Source of the DNA: a virus
Lineage: Duplodnaviria > Heunggongvirae > Uroviricota > Caudoviricetes
Virus record (IMG/VR): IMGVR_UViG_2703718829_000001
Strand: one strand, 5' to 3'
DNA length: 15,311 bases
Shown: in pieces, positions 1 to 15,269 of the stretch
How positions within the stretch are numbered: the first letter of the stretch is position 1
Layout: every line of letters starts with the position of its first letter
Translations under genes and position numbers: made by a program
Notes under the pieces: generated by a model
Seen by the model: the letters and a program-made list of their open reading frames with translations, nothing else
Told to the model about the DNA's origin: nothing
Databases searched by the model: none

Positions 1-1642
1 TATTACGTGGGTAGGATCAAGTTCTTATGAACGCCAGAAGAGAACAGCCGCAGAGATAGCCGCAAAATATGATCTTGAGCTAGTTACAAGCTATCAGGAT
101 TTTGGTGTATCTGCATTCAAAGGGGCTAACAGTAGAACAGGTGCACTATCTCGCTTTCTGGATGAGATTGGTCGATCCGTTCCGGTTGGTAGCTGGCTGG
201 TTGTGGAAAACTTAGACCGTATCTCTCGCCAATCCATCATTGAAGCACAAGAGCTATTTCTCTCGATTATCCGTAGGGGAATAACTATCGTAACTGGCAT
301 GGATGGTAAGGTCTATAGCAAGGAATCGGTTAATGCCAATCCTATTGATTTGCTGTTGAGTGTCATGTTGTTTGCGAGAGCTAACGAGGAAAGTCAGACT
401 AAGCGCAATCGTACTAACTCAAGCGCATTGATTAAGATTAAAGCTCATCAAGAAAATCCACAAAATCCGGCTGTTGCAATCGAGGAAATTGGAAAGAATA
501 TGTGGTGGACTGATACCACATCTGGTTATGTGCTTCCTCATCCGGTCTTCTTCCCTATTGTTCAGGAAGTTGTGGAATTACGCAGGAATGGACGGTCAAC
601 CGCCGAGATACTGGATCACCTTAACGCGACATACACACCACCACCAGCCGCAAGTCACAAGAGGCATTCAAACTGGTCACGGGCAATGATTGAAAGGTTG
701 TTCCATACCCGCGCTTTGATTGGTATCAAGGAAATCTCTGTAGATGGCGTTAAGTATGAGTTAAAGGATTATTATCCTCGTGTGCTAGATGACGCTGAGT
801 TTTATCACCTTAAGAAAAGCATTGGTGTTAGAGCATGTAACTATGGAGACAAGGAAGAAGTTAAACCTATTCCCTTGCTTAGTGGTGTTGGTCTATTGAA
901 ATGTGAACATTGCGGTTCCGCTATGGTTAAGGTGAAAGGAACTAACAAACGTCCTAACCAATATCGTTATTCATGCGATGCAATGCGCTCTAGTCGTATT
1001 GCATGTGTGCATACAAACTGGAGTTTTCGAGGTGATCAATTAGAGAAAGCTGTATTGCAATTGCTGGCTGATAAAATCTGGATTGCTGAGGATAAGGCTA
1101 ATCCGGTTCCGGCTTTGAAAGTACAGATTGATGAAATATCACGCAAGATTGATAACCTGATTACCCTTTCTGCTATGACAGGAGCAACGAAGGAGCTAGC
1201 CGATCAGATTACTACCCTCAATAGCGAGCGTGAAACACTCTACAATCAAATTAAGATGGCAGAAGAGGAAATGTATTCTGTTGACTCTCAAGGCTGGGAG
1301 AAGCTCGCAGAATTTGATTTAGAAGATGTTTACAACGAGGATCGCATTAAGGTCCGGTTTAAGATTAAGCAAGCTCTAAAACGGATCGGGTGTAGCAGGA
1401 TTGACAAGTACAAAAACTTGTTTGTACTGGAATACATCGATGGCAAGACCCAGAGAGTTGTAATAGAAAATTCAAGAGGACCGAGGAAAGGCCGGATCTT
1501 CGTTGATTTGAAAACTATCAATGATAGACAGATTCTGGAAAGTAACGGGCTTGTTTTGCATCCATGTTTAGACATGCTGACAGATAAGAACTGGAAACCA
1601 GAAGAGGAAATACCAGGTCCATTACAGGAATTTGGAATTTAA
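1..1642 (+). CDS. Large serine recombinase (integrase-type), 5'-truncated at the window edge
   Basis: Frame 2 is open from position 2 to the TAA at 1640-1642; the GTG at 203 in the ORF track is internal. Translation from nt 2 gives ...GSSSYERQ... then ...GSWLVVENLDRISRQ... (nt ~190-225), resolvase-type catalytic-domain motifs, followed by a Cys-rich zinc-ribbon (CEHCGS...YRYSCD...C, nt ~900-1010) and a C-terminal coiled coil. Size and domain order fit a large serine recombinase rather than a small invertase. Only a few N-terminal codons are missing. Confidence 0.85.
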   Translation, partial: ITWVGSSSYERQKRTAAEIAAKYDLELVTSYQDFGVSAFKGANSRTGALSRFLDEIGRSVPVGSWLVVENLDRISRQSIIEAQELFLSIIRRGITIVTGMDGKVYSKESVNANPIDLLLSVMLFARANEESQTKRNRTNSSALIKIKAHQENPQNPAVAIEEIGKNMWWTDTTSGYVLPHPVFFPIVQEVVELRRNGRSTAEILDHLNATYTPPPAASHKRHSNWSRAMIERLFHTRALIGIKEISVDGVKYELKDYYPRVLDDAEFYHLKKSIGVRACNYGDKEEVKPIPLLSGVGLLKCEHCGSAMVKVKGTNKRPNQYRYSCDAMRSSRIACVHTNWSFRGDQLEKAVLQLLADKIWIAEDKANPVPALKVQIDEISRKIDNLITLSAMTGATKELADQITTLNSERETLYNQIKMAEEEMYSVDSQGWEKLAEFDLEDVYNEDRIKVRFKIKQALKRIGCSRIDKYKNLFVLEYIDGKTQRVVIENSRGPRKGRIFVDLKTINDRQILESNGLVLHPCLDMLTDKNWKPEEEIPGPLQEFGI

Positions 1643-1715: not shown

Positions 1716-2714
1716 TTAAAGAGCCTCTAAAGGGCTTAAATCGAGTTCTAAGTCTTCTGGTGTTAAATCAGCTAACGGTGCATTCATCCACTGCGATAAA
1801 TCTCGTTCTATGTCTTCATCACTAATGTAGTTGTTCAGATTGATTGCGTTGGTATCATCAAAATACATTGGCTTAGATGGGTTGGTGTGGATGTATTCAT
1901 TGATGAATGATTTAACATCTTTCAGCTTGCTAATCGGTAGCGTTTCTGTGAATCCGCTATTCATTACCTTACGTGGAATTTTCTTGCCCTGAATATTCTT
2001 TTTAATCCCCATTTCTAAATCACCAGCTTTCCATCCAATGTTAAACAAATGTGAGCATTCAAAGGTGATTTTCTCGCTGGTGTGCTTCTGGTGTTCTCTT
2101 ACCCGTTGCATCGGATCTTTGCGAGTGGTAATTCCATATTTGAAAAACTTCTCGCCAACACGAATTAGATAAAAGTGCATAGGGCGCTGTGCAAACTTGT
2201 TTCTGATAACCTGTTTTCTACCATTCTGAATTGATTTAAGTACACCCCTAACCAAAGGGCATGTTAACCCGCCTTGTCTGCGGTTATTGTGTAAATCACC
2301 TTTCTTGTGAATCTTTCCGTGGCACTTACAACGAAGAATTAGTTTAGTGTCAACACCCTGATAAGGTTCAGCCAGACCTAACACATCCCACCCTATCGGC
2401 TTGTAGAACTTGCGAGCGTTTTCTAAGTGTTCTTCTTCGGTAAATCTAAACTTCTTCTTAGGCGGTGATACTCTATCTTTGCCAGTAAACTGACCAGTTA
2501 GAACATGACTAATACATGGCGTTTTAACCTTTCCGTTAACTTCTATGCAAACTTTGGTGTTCTGGAATGGTTTCTTTACAGGAAGCACAAAACCACTGTA
2601 TAACCACCCATGCACTTGACAAACTTTAATGATTCTGGTTTCATATTCGACCGGAGGGGTCGCACGTTTGCTTTTTGTGGTAAATTCGATATCCTTTGCT
2701 AAAGTAGTATTCAT
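1716..2714 (-). CDS. GIY-YIG / T5orf172-like domain protein with a Cys/His-rich N-terminal half (putative nuclease or DNA-binding protein)
   Basis: 332-aa ORF with ATG at 2714 and a GAGGA Shine-Dalgarno about 8 nt upstream. The C-terminal half contains HFYLIRVGEKFFKYGITTRKDPMQRVREH, which fits the GIY-(10-11)-YIG-...-R-..-H/E pattern of GIY-YIG and T5orf172 domains. The N-terminal half has Cys/His clusters (CQVHGW, CKCHGKIH...C) suggesting a zinc finger. Family assignment is by pattern only. Confidence 0.5.
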   Translation of the reverse strand: MNTTLAKDIEFTTKSKRATPPVEYETRIIKVCQVHGWLYSGFVLPVKKPFQNTKVCIEVNGKVKTPCISHVLTGQFTGKDRVSPPKKKFRFTEEEHLENARKFYKPIGWDVLGLAEPYQGVDTKLILRCKCHGKIHKKGDLHNNRRQGGLTCPLVRGVLKSIQNGRKQVIRNKFAQRPMHFYLIRVGEKFFKYGITTRKDPMQRVREHQKHTSEKITFECSHLFNIGWKAGDLEMGIKKNIQGKKIPRKVMNSGFTETLPISKLKDVKSFINEYIHTNPSKPMYFDDTNAINLNNYISDEDIERDLSQWMNAPLADLTPEDLELDLSPLEAL

Positions 2715-2749
2715 AGTAGTGTCCTCGAAAATAATAAGTTCACTACTAT
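2714..2749 (-). promoter_or_regulatory. 9-bp perfect inverted repeat ATAGTAGTG / CACTACTAT spanning the start region of the T5orf172-like gene, with a third direct copy (AGTAGTA) inside the first codons
   Basis: Arms at 2714-2722 and 2741-2749 with an 18-nt spacer containing the GAGGA Shine-Dalgarno. A related copy lies at 2703-2709. No T-run follows, so it is not a terminator; it could be an operator or an RNA structure over the ribosome-binding site. Confidence 0.3.
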
Positions 2750-2758
2750 TTATAAGAA

Positions 2759-3130
2759 TTAATTATTGTAGTTTTGGAAGCCAGTAAGATCGCAAAATGA
2801 ATCAGTGTCATGTGCTGGGGAACGATGCTCTGCTTCGTCGGAGAAAATGTTGGATACCGGAGATTCCACTTTAACTTCCGGTGCTTCTTCAACATCTGAC
2901 TTAACTTCTTCGACCACTGGTTCAACTGCTGGAGATTCTTCTTTTGTTTCTTCAATGACGATCTCAGGTTCTTTCATTGCTTCAACCAGAGACGGATCAA
3001 CTTCGTCGAATACCACTTTATCATCTGCGGTATATTTGTCTATAATGAAAAAATGGTCAGAAATATAGCTAACGTCGCCAGCATATTCTAACAAAAAAGC
3101 GCCCACCAGAGGCGCTTTTGTTTTATCCAT
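2759..3130 (-). CDS. Highly acidic hypothetical protein (Glu/Asp/Pro/Val-rich C-terminal half); start codon uncertain
   Basis: ORF ends with TAA at 2759-2761. Candidate starts are TTG at 3160 (overlaps the upstream gene by 38 nt, no Shine-Dalgarno), ATG at 3130 (Shine-Dalgarno-like GGTGGA but no spacer) and ATG at 2977 (72 aa). The terminator hairpin at 3099-3115 lies inside the two longer versions, so the real protein may be the short form. Translation is strongly acidic (EEPEIVIEETKEESPAVEPVVEEVKSDVEEAPEVKVE...). Confidence 0.4.
   Translation of the reverse strand: MDKTKAPLVGAFLLEYAGDVSYISDHFFIIDKYTADDKVVFDEVDPSLVEAMKEPEIVIEETKEESPAVEPVVEEVKSDVEEAPEVKVESPVSNIFSDEAEHRSPAHDTDSFCDLTGFQNYNN
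3093..3116 (-). terminator. Intrinsic terminator downstream of the peptidase M15 gene
   Basis: On the minus strand: AGCGCC-ucuggug-GGCGCU stem-loop (3099-3116) followed by UUUUU (3093-3097), starting 7 nt after the stop at 3123. An A-run on the other side makes it formally bidirectional. Confidence 0.55.
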
Positions 3131-3476
3131 TCCACCGTGATTTTTTTGATCTGGAATCAATATGCGTAAAGGTTTTATATTTTCCTAAGCCGTATTGAGT
3201 AGGATATTTCCCATCAAGATAAGCATGAACAATATCAGGTGAGACACCCTTGATAACAATGTCAGCCGCACGGCCTCGAACGTGATAGCTGTTGGTTGCA
3301 CCGCCTACATTCTTGTTATGAGTCGGGCAACGGTTGCCACTGTTAATAATTACTGGTTTCCCGAAGTGTTCGCGTACATCCTCAAGAATCACCAGTAATT
3401 CAGCGTCGATTGTATCATAATCACATTTTCCGCATTTACATTTAAATTCCTTGCGAGAAAAATGCTTACTTAACAT
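3123..3476 (-). CDS. Peptidase M15 family protein (zinc D-Ala-D-Ala carboxypeptidase-like); putative endolysin or cell-wall hydrolase
   Basis: 117-aa ORF with ATG at 3476 preceded by TAAGGGGGTAAT. The translation FSRKEFKCKCGKC...GKPVIINSGNRCPTHNKNVGGATNSYHVRGRAADIV matches the small peptidase M15 (YcbK/DUF882-like) pattern SG.R....N...GG...S.H..G.A.D. Confidence 0.75.
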   Translation of the reverse strand: MLSKHFSRKEFKCKCGKCDYDTIDAELLVILEDVREHFGKPVIINSGNRCPTHNKNVGGATNSYHVRGRAADIVIKGVSPDIVHAYLDGKYPTQYGLGKYKTFTHIDSRSKKSRWNG

Positions 3477-3485
3477 ATTACCCCC

Positions 3486-3833
3486 TTAGATCATTTCGAA
3501 GATATAACCAATAAAGCGCATACCCTTGATATAATAAGGAGCAGTGCCTACACACACCGCGCGTGCATCACCCAGACAGTTAAAGCTATAAGGATTAACT
3601 ACATCGACTTCTTGTCCTACACGAAAACGATATTTAGGACGTTTAGCCAATGTAGCGACACAAAACACGGTCCCTTTTTCATGATCGCGGATACATTCTT
3701 TATATTGTTTATGTTTAACTCTCTTCGCCTCAAAATCATGTGTCATAGATTCTGGGCTAATGCCATTAATAAAAATACCGGAAAGCTGATCGACCGGATA
3801 AGTAGGAAATTCAGTGAAAATATTTTTAGCCAT
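3486..3833 (-). CDS. Hypothetical protein (115 aa)
   Basis: ATG at 3833 with a GGGGG Shine-Dalgarno 7 nt upstream; TAA at 3486-3488 sits next to the Shine-Dalgarno of the following gene. No family recognised. Confidence 0.7.
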   Translation of the reverse strand: MAKNIFTEFPTYPVDQLSGIFINGISPESMTHDFEAKRVKHKQYKECIRDHEKGTVFCVATLAKRPKYRFRVGQEVDVVNPYSFNCLGDARAVCVGTAPYYIKGMRFIGYIFEMI

Positions 3834-3836
3834 GTT

Positions 3837-3864
3837 ATACCCCCATAAGTTTCTATGAGGGTAT
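3837..3864 (-). promoter_or_regulatory. RNA stem-loop burying the Shine-Dalgarno of the 115-aa gene (copy 2 of a recurring motif)
   Basis: Minus-strand RNA reads AUACCCUCAUA-gaaacu-UAUGGGGGUAU, an 11-bp stem with one G-U wobble. The 3' arm contains the GGGGG Shine-Dalgarno, with the AUG at 3833 three nt past the stem. It starts 8 nt after the upstream stop at 3872. The same core recurs at 10590-10627. Confidence 0.45.
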
Positions 3865-3871
3865 TTATGGA

Positions 3872-4555
3872 TTAAACGTATTTCATGCGCGATTTAATGT
3901 GCTTATTGATGTTTTCAAGCATCATTGCTTCGTTGCTTTCCCACGATCCTAGCGTCGAATAACGAGTAGAAATTTTATCCGACTTAACGGCAACAATTCG
4001 CTTACTCTGTTTCTGGATGCGTTTCTCTAAGCGACGTTTTGCCACCGCCGATCCATTCCTAGCGCGTTTGGTTCGGGATTTCTTAGGCTTGTACTTCTTC
4101 ATGATAAAAGTCCCTTCCTTGTTCTCTACCTTGATGAAGTTGCCGTTTTCGATGTTACGCATCATCTTACCGCCTTTGATGGCCTTAATGTTCCCGTGGG
4201 CGTCTAAGACCTTACCGTTGGCGATTGGAACTAGCTTATTGATTTTGCCCCCATCGAAATAGTGTTTCAGATAGTCGTCTTGACTGCCGATCTTCTTGTC
4301 CTTATCCCTTGCGCCCTTGATGAAGATTTGGTGTCTCGTCCCTGATCGGTTCTTGTAGTTGGTATTACCTACAGCTTGTTGAGTCCATCGAGTAGGTCTA
4401 TCAACATTCTTGTTAATCTTCTTCTGTAGTGCACGAGCAGCAAAGATCGCCCCTTCCCCTAGTGCCCTTTCGAATGTATCGGTTGCTTTATCAGTCCATT
4501 GGCGTAACGCTTTCTTAGTCCTTAGAGCGTTTCGTTTATTGGTACTGGTTGCCAT
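3872..4555 (-). CDS. Lys/Arg-rich basic hypothetical protein (227 aa)
   Basis: ATG at 4555 with a GGGGG Shine-Dalgarno 5 nt upstream. The translation is very basic throughout, especially the C-terminal third (KKYKPKKSRTKRARNGSAVAKRRLEKRIQKQSKR). No family recognised. Confidence 0.7.
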   Translation of the reverse strand: MATSTNKRNALRTKKALRQWTDKATDTFERALGEGAIFAARALQKKINKNVDRPTRWTQQAVGNTNYKNRSGTRHQIFIKGARDKDKKIGSQDDYLKHYFDGGKINKLVPIANGKVLDAHGNIKAIKGGKMMRNIENGNFIKVENKEGTFIMKKYKPKKSRTKRARNGSAVAKRRLEKRIQKQSKRIVAVKSDKISTRYSTLGSWESNEAMMLENINKHIKSRMKYV

Positions 4556-4745: not shown

Positions 4746-5024
4746 TTATTTTTGTTTGAGTATGTCGAGAACTTGGTCAAATTTGGCGTCCATCGCAACC
4801 ACTTTCTTTTCTATACCGTGAAGGGTTTGTTCCATGCGATAAACTCTCTCGGCGATCTGGTCATGGTTACTTTGCATTGTTTCAAACTTCTGATTAAACA
4901 ATGCATCATTGGACTCTAATTTCGACAATCTATTTTCTGTGGCTAATTGATTTCGGTGGAGTCTCCAAAGCCCACCACAAATTAAGGCGATAACACCGAT
5001 ACCGCCATATATAATTTCAGTCAT
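4746..5024 (-). CDS. Small membrane protein: N-terminal transmembrane helix plus coiled coil (92 aa)
   Basis: ATG at 5024 with a GGGGGCG Shine-Dalgarno. The N-terminus (IIYGGIGVIALICGGLW) is hydrophobic, followed by a charged heptad-like segment. Topology resembles an i-spanin, holin/antiholin or superinfection-exclusion protein; function is not assignable from sequence. Confidence 0.7.
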   Translation of the reverse strand: MTEIIYGGIGVIALICGGLWRLHRNQLATENRLSKLESNDALFNQKFETMQSNHDQIAERVYRMEQTLHGIEKKVVAMDAKFDQVLDILKQK

Positions 5025-5065
5025 TACGCCCCCGATATTTTTATAATTTCATGGCAGAATTATTT

Positions 5066-5110
5066 AGATAAAAATAATCCCGCCTAACTCAAAAGAATTA
5101 AGCGGGATTA
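5066..5110 (-). terminator. Possible terminator or attenuator after the central tail fibre gene
   Basis: 8-bp inverted repeat AATCCCGC (5076-5083) / GCGGGATT (5102-5109) with an 18-nt loop. On the minus strand it is followed by AUUUUUAUCU, 19 nt after the stop at 5128. The long loop lowers confidence. Confidence 0.35.
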
Positions 5111-10023: not shown

Positions 10024-10583
10024 TATACATTCTCCACTAATTCGAATTTCATCTTGCCAATCTGGGCGATCTTCCAATCGATATTTTCAGTTTTGAGAAC
10101 AAATTCGCCTTCTACGTTTTGATACTTGATCACCTCACCCGCCAGGACGTTCTGACGCAAGTTAGGGAAGAGTTTCATTTCACCACCTGATTTCACGTCT
10201 TCGGTGATCGTGTAGATTTTCTTGTGGTTCTCAAACTGGATGACAGTTCCCGCTTTCAGTGTTCCGGTGAAGTTGGAGAGTCTTACCTTGCGTCCACCGC
10301 GAGCAGTACCAGCAGCAGCCGTAACCATCTGGCGTACATCACCTGTATATTTTGAAAAGTAAGACAGTGGCACACTGAAAGGACGACCAAAAAGGTGACG
10401 TGCTACAAATTCTTTTACTTCGTTAATATCCTGAGCCATGAAATTAGCTGTAAATTCTGCTTCATAAAAATGAATGCCAGTAAAGCGACGTTGAAATTTA
10501 CCAGAAATAGATTGTGCCTTGAAGAAAGGCTGTTTTGATTTAAGAGTAAAATCTGTGATTTTAATATTCTTGGATTTGAACAT
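10023..10583 (-). CDS. Minor tail protein (distal tail / gpM position), 186 aa
   Basis: ATG at 10583 with a GGGGG Shine-Dalgarno 6 nt upstream, first gene after the tape measure gene. Assignment by synteny; no sequence motif recognised. Confidence 0.6.
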   Translation of the reverse strand: MFKSKNIKITDFTLKSKQPFFKAQSISGKFQRRFTGIHFYEAEFTANFMAQDINEVKEFVARHLFGRPFSVPLSYFSKYTGDVRQMVTAAAGTARGGRKVRLSNFTGTLKAGTVIQFENHKKIYTITEDVKSGGEMKLFPNLRQNVLAGEVIKYQNVEGEFVLKTENIDWKIAQIGKMKFELVENV

Positions 10584-10589
10584 AGAAAA

Positions 10590-10627
10590 GCCCCCATAGT
10601 TTTATGATTATTTATCACTATGAGGGC
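10590..10627 (-). promoter_or_regulatory. RNA stem-loop burying the Shine-Dalgarno of the first minor tail gene (copy 1 of a recurring motif)
   Basis: Minus-strand RNA reads GCCCUCAUAGU-(16-nt loop)-ACUAUGGGGGC, an 11-bp stem with one G-U wobble. It starts 6 nt after the tape measure stop (10634). The 3' arm carries GGGGG, and the AUG at 10583 lies 6 nt beyond. Flanked by A4 and U4. Confidence 0.45.
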
Positions 10628-10633
10628 TTTTAA

Positions 10634-13446: not shown

Positions 13447-13755
13447 TTACTTTACCTCGTTTTCAATTACTGCCGGATCTTGCATCAATGATGCTTGAGC
13501 AACCAAACCGATTAATTCACTTCGAACGTTAGTATACAGTGCCTTAACTTGTTCCATAGATTCAAATACTGGCTTGCCGTCTTCATCTTCAATACAACGA
13601 AGAATAGAACGTTCATCACGGTCTTCTTTATCAGTATTGAAAACATGTTCATTAAATTCTTTTACTGACATAGGGCGAGCATAGAAAGTGAATCCACCGA
13701 TGGTCAAAGATTCGCGTTTCGGAGAGAGTGCGGCTAACATTTCGTTAATATTCAT
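13447..13755 (-). CDS. Tail assembly chaperone, gpG-like (102 aa)
   Basis: ATG at 13755 with a strong AGAGGAAA Shine-Dalgarno. Small acidic protein immediately after the tube gene and its terminator, the canonical position of the G chaperone. Confidence 0.6.
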   Translation of the reverse strand: MNINEMLAALSPKRESLTIGGFTFYARPMSVKEFNEHVFNTDKEDRDERSILRCIEDEDGKPVFESMEQVKALYTNVRSELIGLVAQASLMQDPAVIENEVK

Positions 13756-13800
13756 TATTGTTTCCTCTTAAGTTAATTCGATATGTTTATTTAGAATTGG

Positions 13801-14308: not shown

Positions 14309-14362
14309 TATTCTTTTCCTTCTATTTTAAACAATAGGGCACATACCCGTAATTCTATTTAT

Positions 14363-14665
14363 TTAGCGGTTGCTCAAACGTCTATAACGAAGATGAGCGA
14401 CCCCCCTATTTGTGCTAACGGTAATTACCGCCCCTTGCGGTGCAATACAAGAATGAATCTGTCCCCAATCATGACCCTTATGACTTCCAGACACACAAAA
14501 GCCATGCAAAAGCAATTCTGAGTCACCACCGCCACCACCAGAAGAACTAGCACCAAATGAAACCGTACCGAAAGCGTCGGCTGTCCAACCGTTAGGAATA
14601 TCAAACCATCCCTGATTAGCTTTACCGGCTTTATTGTCTAAAACGCCATACACCCAATATCCCAT
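14363..14665 (-). CDS. Glycine-rich small protein, paralog 3 of 3 (100 aa), function unknown
   Basis: ATG at 14665 with an AGGAG Shine-Dalgarno 9 nt upstream; the start overlaps the stop of paralog 2. Shares MGYWV, WFDIPNGW, a poly-Gly run and a basic/aromatic C-terminus with its two neighbours. Confidence 0.7.
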   Translation of the reverse strand: MGYWVYGVLDNKAGKANQGWFDIPNGWTADAFGTVSFGASSSGGGGGDSELLLHGFCVSGSHKGHDWGQIHSCIAPQGAVITVSTNRGVAHLRYRRLSNR

Positions 14666-14970
14666 TAATGCATTCTCCTAAATTGGAAGTGGTTTAAACT
14701 TCCTTTACCAATGCTAAAACTGACAGTAGCACCAACACCAACTAAAGAACTAGCTCCCCAACTTCCGGCATTACCAGCGTGATGACCTGATTCGAGAGTA
14801 CCGTTTACATATAATTCGGCGTCCAAGTCACCTCCACCGCCAACGGCTTCGGCATGAACAGACACAATACCGCATGAATCCGTCACCCAACCATTAGGGA
14901 TACCAAACCAGCCGCCATTAGCATAAATGCTAATAGCATTAGCCATTCTTCCAGCAACCCAACCAGCCAT
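14665..14970 (-). CDS. Glycine-rich small protein, paralog 2 of 3 (101 aa), function unknown
   Basis: ATG at 14970 with a GGAG Shine-Dalgarno 8 nt upstream; 2 nt after the stop of paralog 1. Motifs MAGWV, WFGIPNGW, GGGG. Confidence 0.7.
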   Translation of the reverse strand: MAGWVAGRMANAISIYANGGWFGIPNGWVTDSCGIVSVHAEAVGGGGDLDAELYVNGTLESGHHAGNAGSWGASSLVGVGATVSFSIGKGSLNHFQFRRMH

Positions 14971-14972
14971 AA

Positions 14973-15269
14973 TTAAAACTCCATAAATTTAAAGTATTCA
15001 ATACCACCGACACCCCCATGACCAAAGGTGACAGTACATCCAGCAGGAACAAACGCATTAACCGTAAATCCCCAATCCCCACCACCACGACGACGCGCGG
15101 CGACCATACCGTCAACGGAAATATGCATATCGCCCCAACCATCACGAGCGGTATGCCGCAAAACGGCAACACCAGCACGACCGGGTACATATCCATTAGG
15201 AATATCAAAAACATGCCATTTTACAGCATCTATTTTAGTGCCTTGTTCATTACTTACCCAATAGCCCAT
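14973..15269 (-). CDS. Glycine-rich small protein, paralog 1 of 3 (98 aa), function unknown
   Basis: ATG at 15269 with an AAGGA Shine-Dalgarno 6 nt upstream. Motifs MGYWV, FDIPNGY, RRRGGGDWG. The most divergent of the three. Confidence 0.65.
   Translation of the reverse strand: MGYWVSNEQGTKIDAVKWHVFDIPNGYVPGRAGVAVLRHTARDGWGDMHISVDGMVAARRRGGGDWGFTVNAFVPAGCTVTFGHGGVGGIEYFKFMEF

Follow-up and report, generated by a model that had tools for sequence, protein, structure and literature searches.

The DNA analyzed here, referred to as the window, is the whole 15,311-nucleotide (nt) virus record IMGVR_UViG_2703718829_000001, and the feature under study is a hairpin at 3837-3864 (copy 1), located on the minus strand between the genes of a 227-amino acid (aa) and a 115-aa protein; the genes flanking it are all on the minus strand. 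A second hairpin of this kind (copy 2) is found at 10631-10586 on the same strand, between the tape-measure gene (stop codon at 10636-10634) and the distal-tail (Dit) gene (ATG at 10583). The window region matches chromosomal DNA at 98-99% identity in 55 of the 5426 complete E. coli genomes; strain Z0117EC0005 has it as part of an insert, about 36 kb in size, which splits the ycdX gene. The insertion in ycdX of E. coli (1-145 and 36138-36533 of locus L131, which holds a complete element) has an equivalent site in Salmonella, next to ycdY/csg. The insert encodes head and terminase proteins (terminase, portal and a protease-capsid fusion), tail proteins (tail fiber, tube, chaperones, tape measure, Dit, hub and a J-like tip), a short lysis region with an M15 endolysin, a large serine recombinase and a variable accessory block (a UvsW-like helicase, a GIY-YIG nuclease and sometimes a UvsY-like protein). 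Genes for replication, a repressor or a sigma factor are not recognized in the insert by family searches, including Pfam and PHROGs. Thousands of assemblies encode an identical 115-aa protein, and a search of the genome contigs with the Dit alignment finds one locus only. Nucleotide searches of the GenBank phages with the copy 1 region find no match, near or distant.

In the minus-strand RNA of copy 1, the segment A3864-G3853 (AUACCCUCAUAG) pairs with the segment U3848-U3837 (UUAUGGGGGUAU), forming, as predicted by RNAfold, a stem of 12 bp that includes two G-U pairs (U3858-G3843 and G3853-U3848). The minimum free energy (MFE) of this fold is -17.8 kcal/mol, with a z-score of -4.4, and none of 200 dinucleotide shuffles folds equally well. 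The stem begins 7 nt past the stop codon of the upstream gene, and its 3' arm includes the GGGGG Shine-Dalgarno (SD) sequence (3844-3840), which is 6 nt ahead of the ATG at 3833 and has a probability of being unpaired of 0.00 in the predicted ensemble. The order on the minus strand is GTT TAA-TC-CATAAATA-CCCTC-ATAG-AAAC-TTAT-GGGGG-TAT-AAC-ATG, or, when written from the stop codon, TAA-tc-CATAAATA-CCCTC-ATAGAAACTTAT-GGGGG-TATAAC-ATG. The hairpin at 3837-3864 and the SD sequence buried in its 3' arm had been pointed out in a first-pass annotation made from the letters alone, and both are confirmed by the folding. The stem of 11 bp with one wobble given there suits copy 2 and not copy 1, and the 3' arm of copy 1 is CUUAUGGGGG instead of the CUAUGGGGG written there. 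A scan against Rfam 15 at gathering score gives no family match anywhere in the window.

Copy 2 consists, in the minus-strand RNA, of AAAAGCCCUCAUAGU, a 16-nt loop and ACUAUGGGGGCUUUU, and reads AAAAGCCCTCATAGT-GATAAATAATCATAAA-ACTATGGGGGCTTTT-CT-ATG. Its stem begins 2-6 nt past the stop codon of the tape-measure gene, its U-tract is CUUUUCU in the window, and its MFE is -22.7 kcal/mol (z-score -6.2). In a sliding 50-nt scan of the minus strand (5087 segments; mean -7.3, standard deviation 3.4), copy 2 ranks 2nd and copy 1 ranks 8th. The cost of opening the initiation region is also the highest for the two genes that follow these hairpins, being 26.8 kcal/mol for the gene after copy 2 and 19.4 kcal/mol for the gene after copy 1, the top two values of the 37 genes of the complete element; the third highest value is 15.7 kcal/mol, and for most other genes it is about 4-10 kcal/mol. 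GGGGG is the usual SD sequence of the element, as found for the J-like, 92-aa, 227-aa, 115-aa, endolysin and Dit genes, and therefore the G-run of the 3' arm is the ribosome-binding site. The 9-mer shared by the two copies is not significant alone in 15 kb (three matches within one mismatch, compared with 2.4 expected).

A third hairpin that hides an SD sequence and is built in the same way is found outside the window, before the large-terminase gene (7190-7229 of L131, about -10.5 kcal/mol), with the sequence AATAAATA-CCTTC-AT-atttcgta-AT-GAGGG-TAATTAC-ATG. It is kept in the close relatives (L133-L153), and in one of these (L136) the wobble is shifted (CCTTC to CTCTC) with all pairs retained. 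A weaker, fourth case is seen at 13448 of L131 (TAAATACTCCATAAAGGGGGTAACTATG).

The hairpins are conserved in the related elements, and the earlier suggestion that they function in the RNA of the coding strand is supported. Of the 26 close relatives, 25 have a copy 1 of identical sequence; in the exception (L059), two changes are found in the 3' arm, one of which converts a G-U pair into a G-C pair, and the other makes a C-A mismatch. In seven Salmonella-type relatives, where the 115-aa protein is 61-75% identical, the copy 1 spacer (38-43 nt) is 79-90% identical, compared with 59-76% for the upstream coding sequence, such that the conservation of the spacer is at least that of the flanking coding DNA. 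In five Salmonella-type loci the GGGGG of copy 1 is GAGGG, which converts a U-G pair into a U-A pair, and in L160 an A in the 5' arm is changed into G, which converts an A-U pair into a G-U pair; the pair is retained in both cases, and the 5' arm is otherwise almost invariant among the relatives.

For copy 2, the search for covariation proposed in the first-pass annotation shows that the stem covaries. The stem is AAAAG-CCCCC-ATAGT/ACTAT-GGGGG-CTTTT in E. coli and AAATA- or AAAGA-CCCCC-TAGTT/AACTA-GGGGG-TATTT or -TCTTT in Salmonella and Providencia, with two-sided changes preserving Watson-Crick pairs at 6 of the 15 stem positions, and all variants fold at -22 to -27 kcal/mol. These pairs are tabulated from the individual folds; a MAFFT alignment, which sets the E. 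coli and Salmonella arms out of register, is not used. The U-tract (CUUUUCU, UAUUUUU or UCUUUUU) is present in all E. coli, Salmonella and Providencia variants. The statement that the stem is perfect only on the minus strand does not describe a conserved property of copy 2, as its wobble is a minority C-to-T polymorphism: among 33 close relatives this site is CCCCC in 23 and CCCUC in 6. The lengths of the runs in copy 2 also vary among near-identical relatives (4-6 C, 5-6 G and a U-tract of 4 or 5 T, as seen when comparing the window with L001, L004, L006, L022 and L026); this is homopolymer slippage or sequencing noise, which would shift the register of the stem and the spacing between the SD sequence and the ATG. 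In the distant relatives L107/L108, L120 and DCP80 a stable hairpin is also present right after the stop codon of the tape-measure gene, and there the SD sequence is untouched.

Both hairpins are associated with the hexamer TAAATA, which directly precedes and overlaps the 5' arm in copy 1 (3867-3862) and is inside the loop in copy 2 (10614-10609). This hexamer occurs nine times on the minus strand of the window and zero times on the plus strand, and six of the nine copies are intergenic, within a few hundred intergenic bases, 31-57 nt before start codons. For the complete element (L131), the 2184 nt of upstream noncoding DNA contain the hexamer 20 times in sense and 3 times in antisense orientation, where shuffling predicts 2.4 +/- 1.5 (maximum of 11 in 5000 shuffles). 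Among the 26 genes whose spacer is 25 nt or longer, 18 carry the hexamer, 16-83 nt ahead of the ATG, and the five copies on the other strand of L131 are all 32-126 nt upstream of genes encoded on that strand. The 87-bp divergent spacer before the large-terminase gene has exactly one box per strand, 32 and 35 nt from the respective ATG. Several boxes directly follow terminator-like hairpins. In the Salmonella and Providencia relatives the boxes are kept at each junction, and the adjoining spacer sequence varies; the copy 1 box is kept in the E. coli and Salmonella relatives, and the box in the copy 2 loop is kept in all relatives while the stem covaries. In five Salmonella-type variants of copy 2, there is a box before the stem as well as a box in the loop. 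The genes without a box (the integrase gene, the 185-aa gene upstream of the UvsW-like helicase gene and a small regulator gene) have sigma-70-like -10/-35 sequences instead.

A sigma-70 reading of the TAAATA box is rejected, as a search beside the boxes finds no -35 element and there is no T at the -7 position in either register. The box resembles instead the late promoters of T4, which consist of the 8-bp sequence TATAAATA at -13 to -6 without a -35 element (PMC2988020). Variants of these are known with A for T at -13, at nine T4 sites, and with a/gC at -13/-12 in Aeh1 (PMC2988020), and the two box classes of the element, NATAAATA and NCTAAATA, match these variants. From these statistics and this analogy, we infer that the boxes are promoters.

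The closest parallel is the leader of the T4 lysozyme gene, gene e (taken from NC_000866), which reads, from the stop codon of nudE, TAA-TTT-TATAAATA-CCTTC-TATAAATA-CTTA-GGAGG-TATT-ATG. The 5' arm of its hairpin (AAUACCUUC) starts within the first of two late promoters; the loop holds the second one, and GGAGGUAUU forms the 3' arm. Copy 1 (CATAAATA-CCCTC...GGGGG-TAT) and the terminase leader (AATAAATA-CCTTC...GAGGG-TA) are in the same register as this leader. The global alignment of copy 1 with the T4 e leader has a score of 19, compared with -5.8 +/- 3.5 and a maximum of 8 for 2000 shuffles. This resemblance is not detectable by BLAST; a search of the phages with a 55-nt copy 1 query gives only chance 21-nt matches to Vibrio phages.

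In both leaders the stop codon is followed by a short spacer and then by a TATAAATA-type box that runs into a C-rich 5' arm (CCCTC here, CCTTC in T4), and the SD sequence (GGGGG here, GGAGG in T4) and UAU are in the 3' arm, with the ATG a few nt on. The box in the T4 e loop has its parallel in the box of the copy 2 loop, and the Salmonella-type variants with two boxes reproduce both T4 positions; T4 e and copy 1 also both precede lysis genes. Unlike T4 e, the hairpins described here are part of an integrated siphovirus-like element of E. coli and Salmonella and not of a T4-like phage, the copy 1 box CATAAATA matches at 7 of 8 positions, the copy 1 loop holds only a degenerate second box (CATAGAAA), and gp55 or gp33 are not detectable in the element.

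The T4 e hairpin sequesters the SD sequence, and two late promoters belong to it (McPheeters et al. 1986, as reviewed in PMC3014915). It has been documented experimentally that the long early transcripts of gene e form this structure and are translated about 100-fold less, and that the transcripts from the two late promoters, without the 5' strand, are well translated (PMC3014915). The T4-related phages retain a late promoter in the region encoding the 5' strand, and the same mechanism is likewise documented by experiment for T4 soc, 49 and I-TevI (PMC3014915). In the leaders of soc, gene 49, I-TevI, segB and Aeh1 mobE the SD sequence and/or the AUG is in a helix, the 5' strand of which is bypassed by a late promoter, and translation is thereby delayed or insulated from upstream transcripts (PMC3014915). 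These leaders differ from those of the element by having other sequences and other downstream genes and by belonging to T4-family lytic phages.

The observed structure, the burial of the SD sequence in silico, the conservation and covariation, the motif statistics and the identity of the layout with that of T4 e suggest that the hairpin is a T4 gene e-type translational gate with an embedded late-type promoter, and this reading is put forward with moderate confidence. In RNA that arrives from upstream, by read-through of the 227-aa gene, from earlier promoters or by host transcription, the CCCUC strand would pair with the GGGGG SD sequence, and the 115-aa gene would remain untranslated. If CATAAATA is read as a T4-type late promoter, being its 8-bp TATA box at -13 to -6 without a -35 element, then the RNA would begin about 6 nt downstream, at the A of CAUAG (3856), and CCCUC would be exactly the -5 to -1 segment. 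The RNA started at this promoter would lack the anti-SD strand, leaving the ribosome-binding site open, such that the expression of the 115-aa gene would be tied to its own late-type promoter and be insulated from read-through. When the RNA is started in silico 6 nt past the box, the opening cost drops from 19.4 to 3.5 kcal/mol for copy 1 and from 26.8 to 4.2 kcal/mol for copy 2, where the same gate would operate with the box in the loop. It is possible that the effect of the gate may also reach the endolysin gene, which has its own GGGGG SD sequence and starts 9 nt after the stop codon of the 115-aa gene. The activity of the promoter, its start site, the nature of the factor reading the box and the biological purpose of the arrangement are proposed here by comparison with T4, and the feature is best filed as a further member of the T4 gene e class in an unexpected genomic setting.

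Several observations weigh against this reading. The main weakness is the missing gp55/gp33: no homolog of either protein is found in the 36.6-kb element by tblastn (best E about 6), Pfam or PHROGs, and a Protein Data Bank sequence search with three small ORFs gives no gp55/gp33 match, such that a helper phage or an unrecognized factor would be needed; a distant homolog, alike in structure only, may nevertheless be present. The copy 1 box is a 7/8 match, with C at -13, and its -5 to -1 segment is C-rich, whereas the T4 late promoters are usually AT-rich there; the first T4 e promoter (CCTTC) is the same C-rich exception. The changes in copy 1 are one-sided and pair-preserving only, with no double compensatory change, and its strong sequence conservation could reflect something besides pairing. 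A Providencia relative is without copy 1, having a 14-nt spacer with a free GAGG. Also, the upstream genes of the cluster would be transcribed equally late, and the gain from blocking read-through is less obvious than in T4, where early and late transcription are set apart.

The first-pass annotation interpreted the hairpins as a device of translational coupling, in which the SD sequence is shut until a ribosome finishing the upstream gene melts the stem, and this we consider to be quite unlikely. It is in agreement with coupling that the stems begin so close to the stop codons (7 nt in copy 1, 2-6 nt in copy 2) and that weak outer helices join the stop- and start-codon regions (CCAU/AUGG in copy 1, GAUGUA/UAUGUU in copy 2), which a terminating ribosome would break. 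However, the anti-SD strand is outside the translated sequence, in the spacer, at a distance from the stop codon of 11-15 nt in copy 1 and of 8-12 nt in copy 2. The ribosomal helicase opens the mRNA no further than about +11 from the P site, or 4-5 nt beyond a stop codon placed in the A site; the footprint of a ribosome with the stop codon in the A site ends about 9-10 nt past this codon. When a terminating ribosome is imitated by holding the mRNA single-stranded for 6, 9, 12 or 15 nt past the stop codon, the proposed release is not reproduced: with 6 nt held open, the stems keep -15.3 (copy 1) and -21.3 kcal/mol (copy 2), and both SD sequences are fully paired. Extending the open stretch to 9 nt leaves copy 1 with -12.7 kcal/mol and a fully paired SD sequence, and copy 2 with -11.8 kcal/mol and only the last two SD bases about 56-68% unpaired; the stems are lost once at least 12 nt are held open. 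The third hairpin, in the divergent spacer before the terminase gene, has no upstream gene on its strand, and coupling leaves the conserved TAAATA box in the arm and loop unexplained. Coupling by ribosome-mediated unfolding is known from the MS2 coat and replicase genes and from the E. coli rpmI-rplT and atp operons, which are like the element in having the SD sequence shut by an intramolecular helix and the adjacent genes on one mRNA. In these systems the masking strand is inside the upstream reading frame, where it is melted by elongating ribosomes, whereas in the element it is 8-15 nt past the stop codon. Given that the anti-SD strand is beyond the reach of unwinding and that the third hairpin is without an upstream gene, coupling is possible only in a weak form.

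It is also conceivable, but unlikely, that the hairpins are a constitutive damper of translation and/or a stabilizer of the mRNA, having no opening condition and being unrelated to the TAAATA boxes. The SD sequence being fully paired in silico and the structure being conserved would fit such a role, and the hairpin after the tape-measure gene without SD contact in the distant relatives mentioned above suggests a function at the 3' end or in stability. A cost of 19-27 kcal/mol would, however, nearly abolish the initiation of genes that are presumably needed (Dit, terminase), and the register between box and arm is the same in three leaders and in T4 e; the damper also does not account for the loop box of copy 2 being kept while the stem covaries. 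The conserved U-tract, together with the GC-rich base of the stem and the A-tract upstream of it, is what copy 2 shares with the Rho-independent terminators between phage structural genes, and clear terminator-like hairpins followed by a TAAATA box are found elsewhere in the window (5110-5075 and 13829-13810). As the explanation of the feature, an intrinsic terminator or attenuator is nevertheless very unlikely: copy 1 has no U-tract (AUAACAUGG follows its stem), so this reading fails for copy 1, and a terminator would rarely have a loop as long as the 16 nt of copy 2. Unlike in such terminators, the copy 2 stem holds the SD sequence of the next gene and its loop holds a promoter-like box. Because of the conserved U-tract, copy 2 is probably also a terminator or attenuator after the tape-measure gene, which would be at most a second function of this copy. 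The high identity of the copy 1 spacer in Salmonella, exceeding that of the upstream coding sequence, with its almost invariant 5' arm, would also be expected for an inverted repeat bound at the DNA level by a regulatory protein, but such an operator is highly improbable. The spacing between the arms differs greatly among the copies (4, 8 and 16 nt), the G/A polymorphism opposite U and the A-to-G change in L160 keep the pairs in the coding-strand RNA and would be mismatches in the DNA, and in copy 2 the sequence changes with complementarity retained, which points to a structure and not to a fixed binding sequence. A site for RNase III is unlikely, as the stems are of only 12-15 bp.

The element carries a full siphovirus-like set of genes for the head, the tail and lysis, together with a serine recombinase gene, and no late-sigma gene is recognized in it. 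It is possible, although doubtful, that the element, unable to read its own T4-type late promoters, is a satellite or hyperparasite, remaining silent in the chromosome until the late machinery (gp55, gp33 and sliding clamp) of a gp55-encoding phage acts on it. The helper would then be an infecting T4-family phage or another phage encoding gp55, and the role of the hairpins ahead of the terminase, Dit and lysis-region genes would be that of safety catches, leaving these genes untranslated in read-through RNA initiated by the host. Such a helper dependence is compatible with the missing sigma factor, with the presence of boxes ahead of most genes and with accessory genes that are T4-like. The only GenBank phage with a related large terminase (44.8% aa identity) is the Escherichia phage DCP80 (PQ671644.1; loci L132, L156 and L157), which is classified in the Tevenvirinae as a T4-like Gaprivervirus. 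The first 23 kb or so of DCP80 are syntenic with the siphovirus-like virion module of the element and have perfect GTTATAAATA boxes. The remainder is T4-like with duplications (three copies of rIIA and two each of the exonuclease, primase, ndd and spackle genes), and the T4 virion genes are present as fragments only. These duplicated genes and fragments indicate that the DCP80 record probably joins, through faulty assembly, a T4-like phage with another molecule present in the same lysate. At high identity, the virion module of DCP80 is found neither in the complete E. coli genomes nor in other phage records, and a search of the literature on a ycdX prophage, a T4 satellite or DCP80 finds nothing relevant.

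The features of the copy 1 and copy 2 leaders and the other boxes of the window are listed in Table 1.

Table 1. Positions in the window of the parts of the two hairpin leaders, of neighboring genes and of further TAAATA boxes
Feature	Position	Strand	Remark
Stop codon TAA of the upstream 227-aa gene (3872-4555)	3872-3874	-	same gene call in RefSeq relatives
CATAAATA box; it shares its last three bases with the start of the 5' arm	3862-3869	-	7/8 match to TATAAATA
5' arm of copy 1, AUACCCUCAUAG; anti-SD CCCUC at 3861-3857, -5 to -1 of the putative promoter	3853-3864	-	
Predicted transcription start, 6 nt past the box	3856	-	T4 late promoter geometry
Loop of copy 1, AAAC; AAUC in most relatives	3849-3852	-	fold
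3' arm of copy 1, UUAUGGGGGUAU, including the SD sequence GGGGG (3840-3844)	3837-3848	-	
115-aa gene, function not assigned; ATG at 3833-3831	3486-3833	-	
M15 endolysin gene, directly after the 115-aa gene	3123-3476	-	
Copy 2: A-tract and GCCCUCAUAGU, 16-nt loop, ACUAUGGGGGC and U-tract; SD sequence GGGGG at 10591-10595	10586-10631	-	
TAAATA box in the loop of copy 2	10609-10614	-	kept in all relatives, with a covarying stem
Two boxes that overlap, TAAATAAATA, 53-57 nt ahead of the tail-tube gene	14356-14365	-	
TAAATA box, 38 nt from the ATG at 13755, following the terminator-like hairpin 13829-13810	13788-13793	-	
TAAATA box, 42 nt from the ATG at 5024, immediately following the terminator-like hairpin 5110-5075	5061-5066	-	
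TATAAATA-type box of the GIY-YIG-like nuclease gene, 38 nt ahead of its ATG (2714)	2747-2752	-	

In two relatives (L063 and L064, 2410-2460), the 3' end of the gene upstream of copy 1 is wholly different from that of the window (3872-3900), and the identity resumes exactly at ...CGTTTAA; this recombination boundary coincides with the stop codon and the box, just before the copy 1 hairpin. Hairpins are also found before Dit homologs of 40-48% identity (L109-L118), which were considered as copy 2 covariation and rejected, their context being different. In these loci and in L034-L038 the gene upstream of the Dit homolog is a divergent T4-lysozyme-like gene, and the short spacer, about 50 nt before the Dit homolog, is a near-perfect palindrome of up to 18 bp (for example, 2453-2500 of L038). 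Each arm of this palindrome holds CCTC/GAGG and a TAAATA box, generating a back-to-back arrangement of box and SD sequence for both genes. In L038 this gene pair adjoins a serine recombinase gene and a TIR-like gene.

The accessory block, between the endolysin and the recombinase genes, is highly variable (1716-3160 in the window, 29724-33112 in L131; further variants in L066-L071, L127-L130 and L158-L161). Its genes are T4-flavored, encoding a UvsW-like helicase, a UvsY-like protein, a GIY-YIG/Seg-like nuclease and proteins with faint CapR or T5orf172 matches, and its promoters are mixed, with TATAAATA boxes for some genes and sigma-70-like sequences for others. This block could be a defense or counter-defense hotspot. 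The recombinase of the window (203-1642, plus strand) is an ORF of 479 aa from a GTG start, compared with 557-561 aa in the relatives. Three paralogous ORFs, each of about 100 aa, are arranged in tandem at 14363-15269 (minus strand); they are glycine-rich and have in common M(G/A)(Y/G)WV...F(D/G)IPNG(W/Y). At this position Z0117EC0005 has a 3.4-kb tail-fiber gene (pyocin-knob/S74 peptidase), and therefore this end of the tail module is replaceable.

If the reading as a T4 gene e-type gate is right, then the trick of the T4 lysozyme gene, in which one stretch of DNA is both the late promoter and the closing strand, such that only the transcripts from the late promoter are translated, extends beyond the T4-family lytic phages, and an integrated element that is common in E. 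coli and Salmonella makes use of it at least three times. When annotating such genomes, hairpins of this kind are not to be taken by default as coupling devices or terminators. Should the more tentative idea of a helper also be true, the element would be expressed only upon infection by a gp55-encoding phage, which would be a new kind of helper dependence for an element that fully encodes its own virion.

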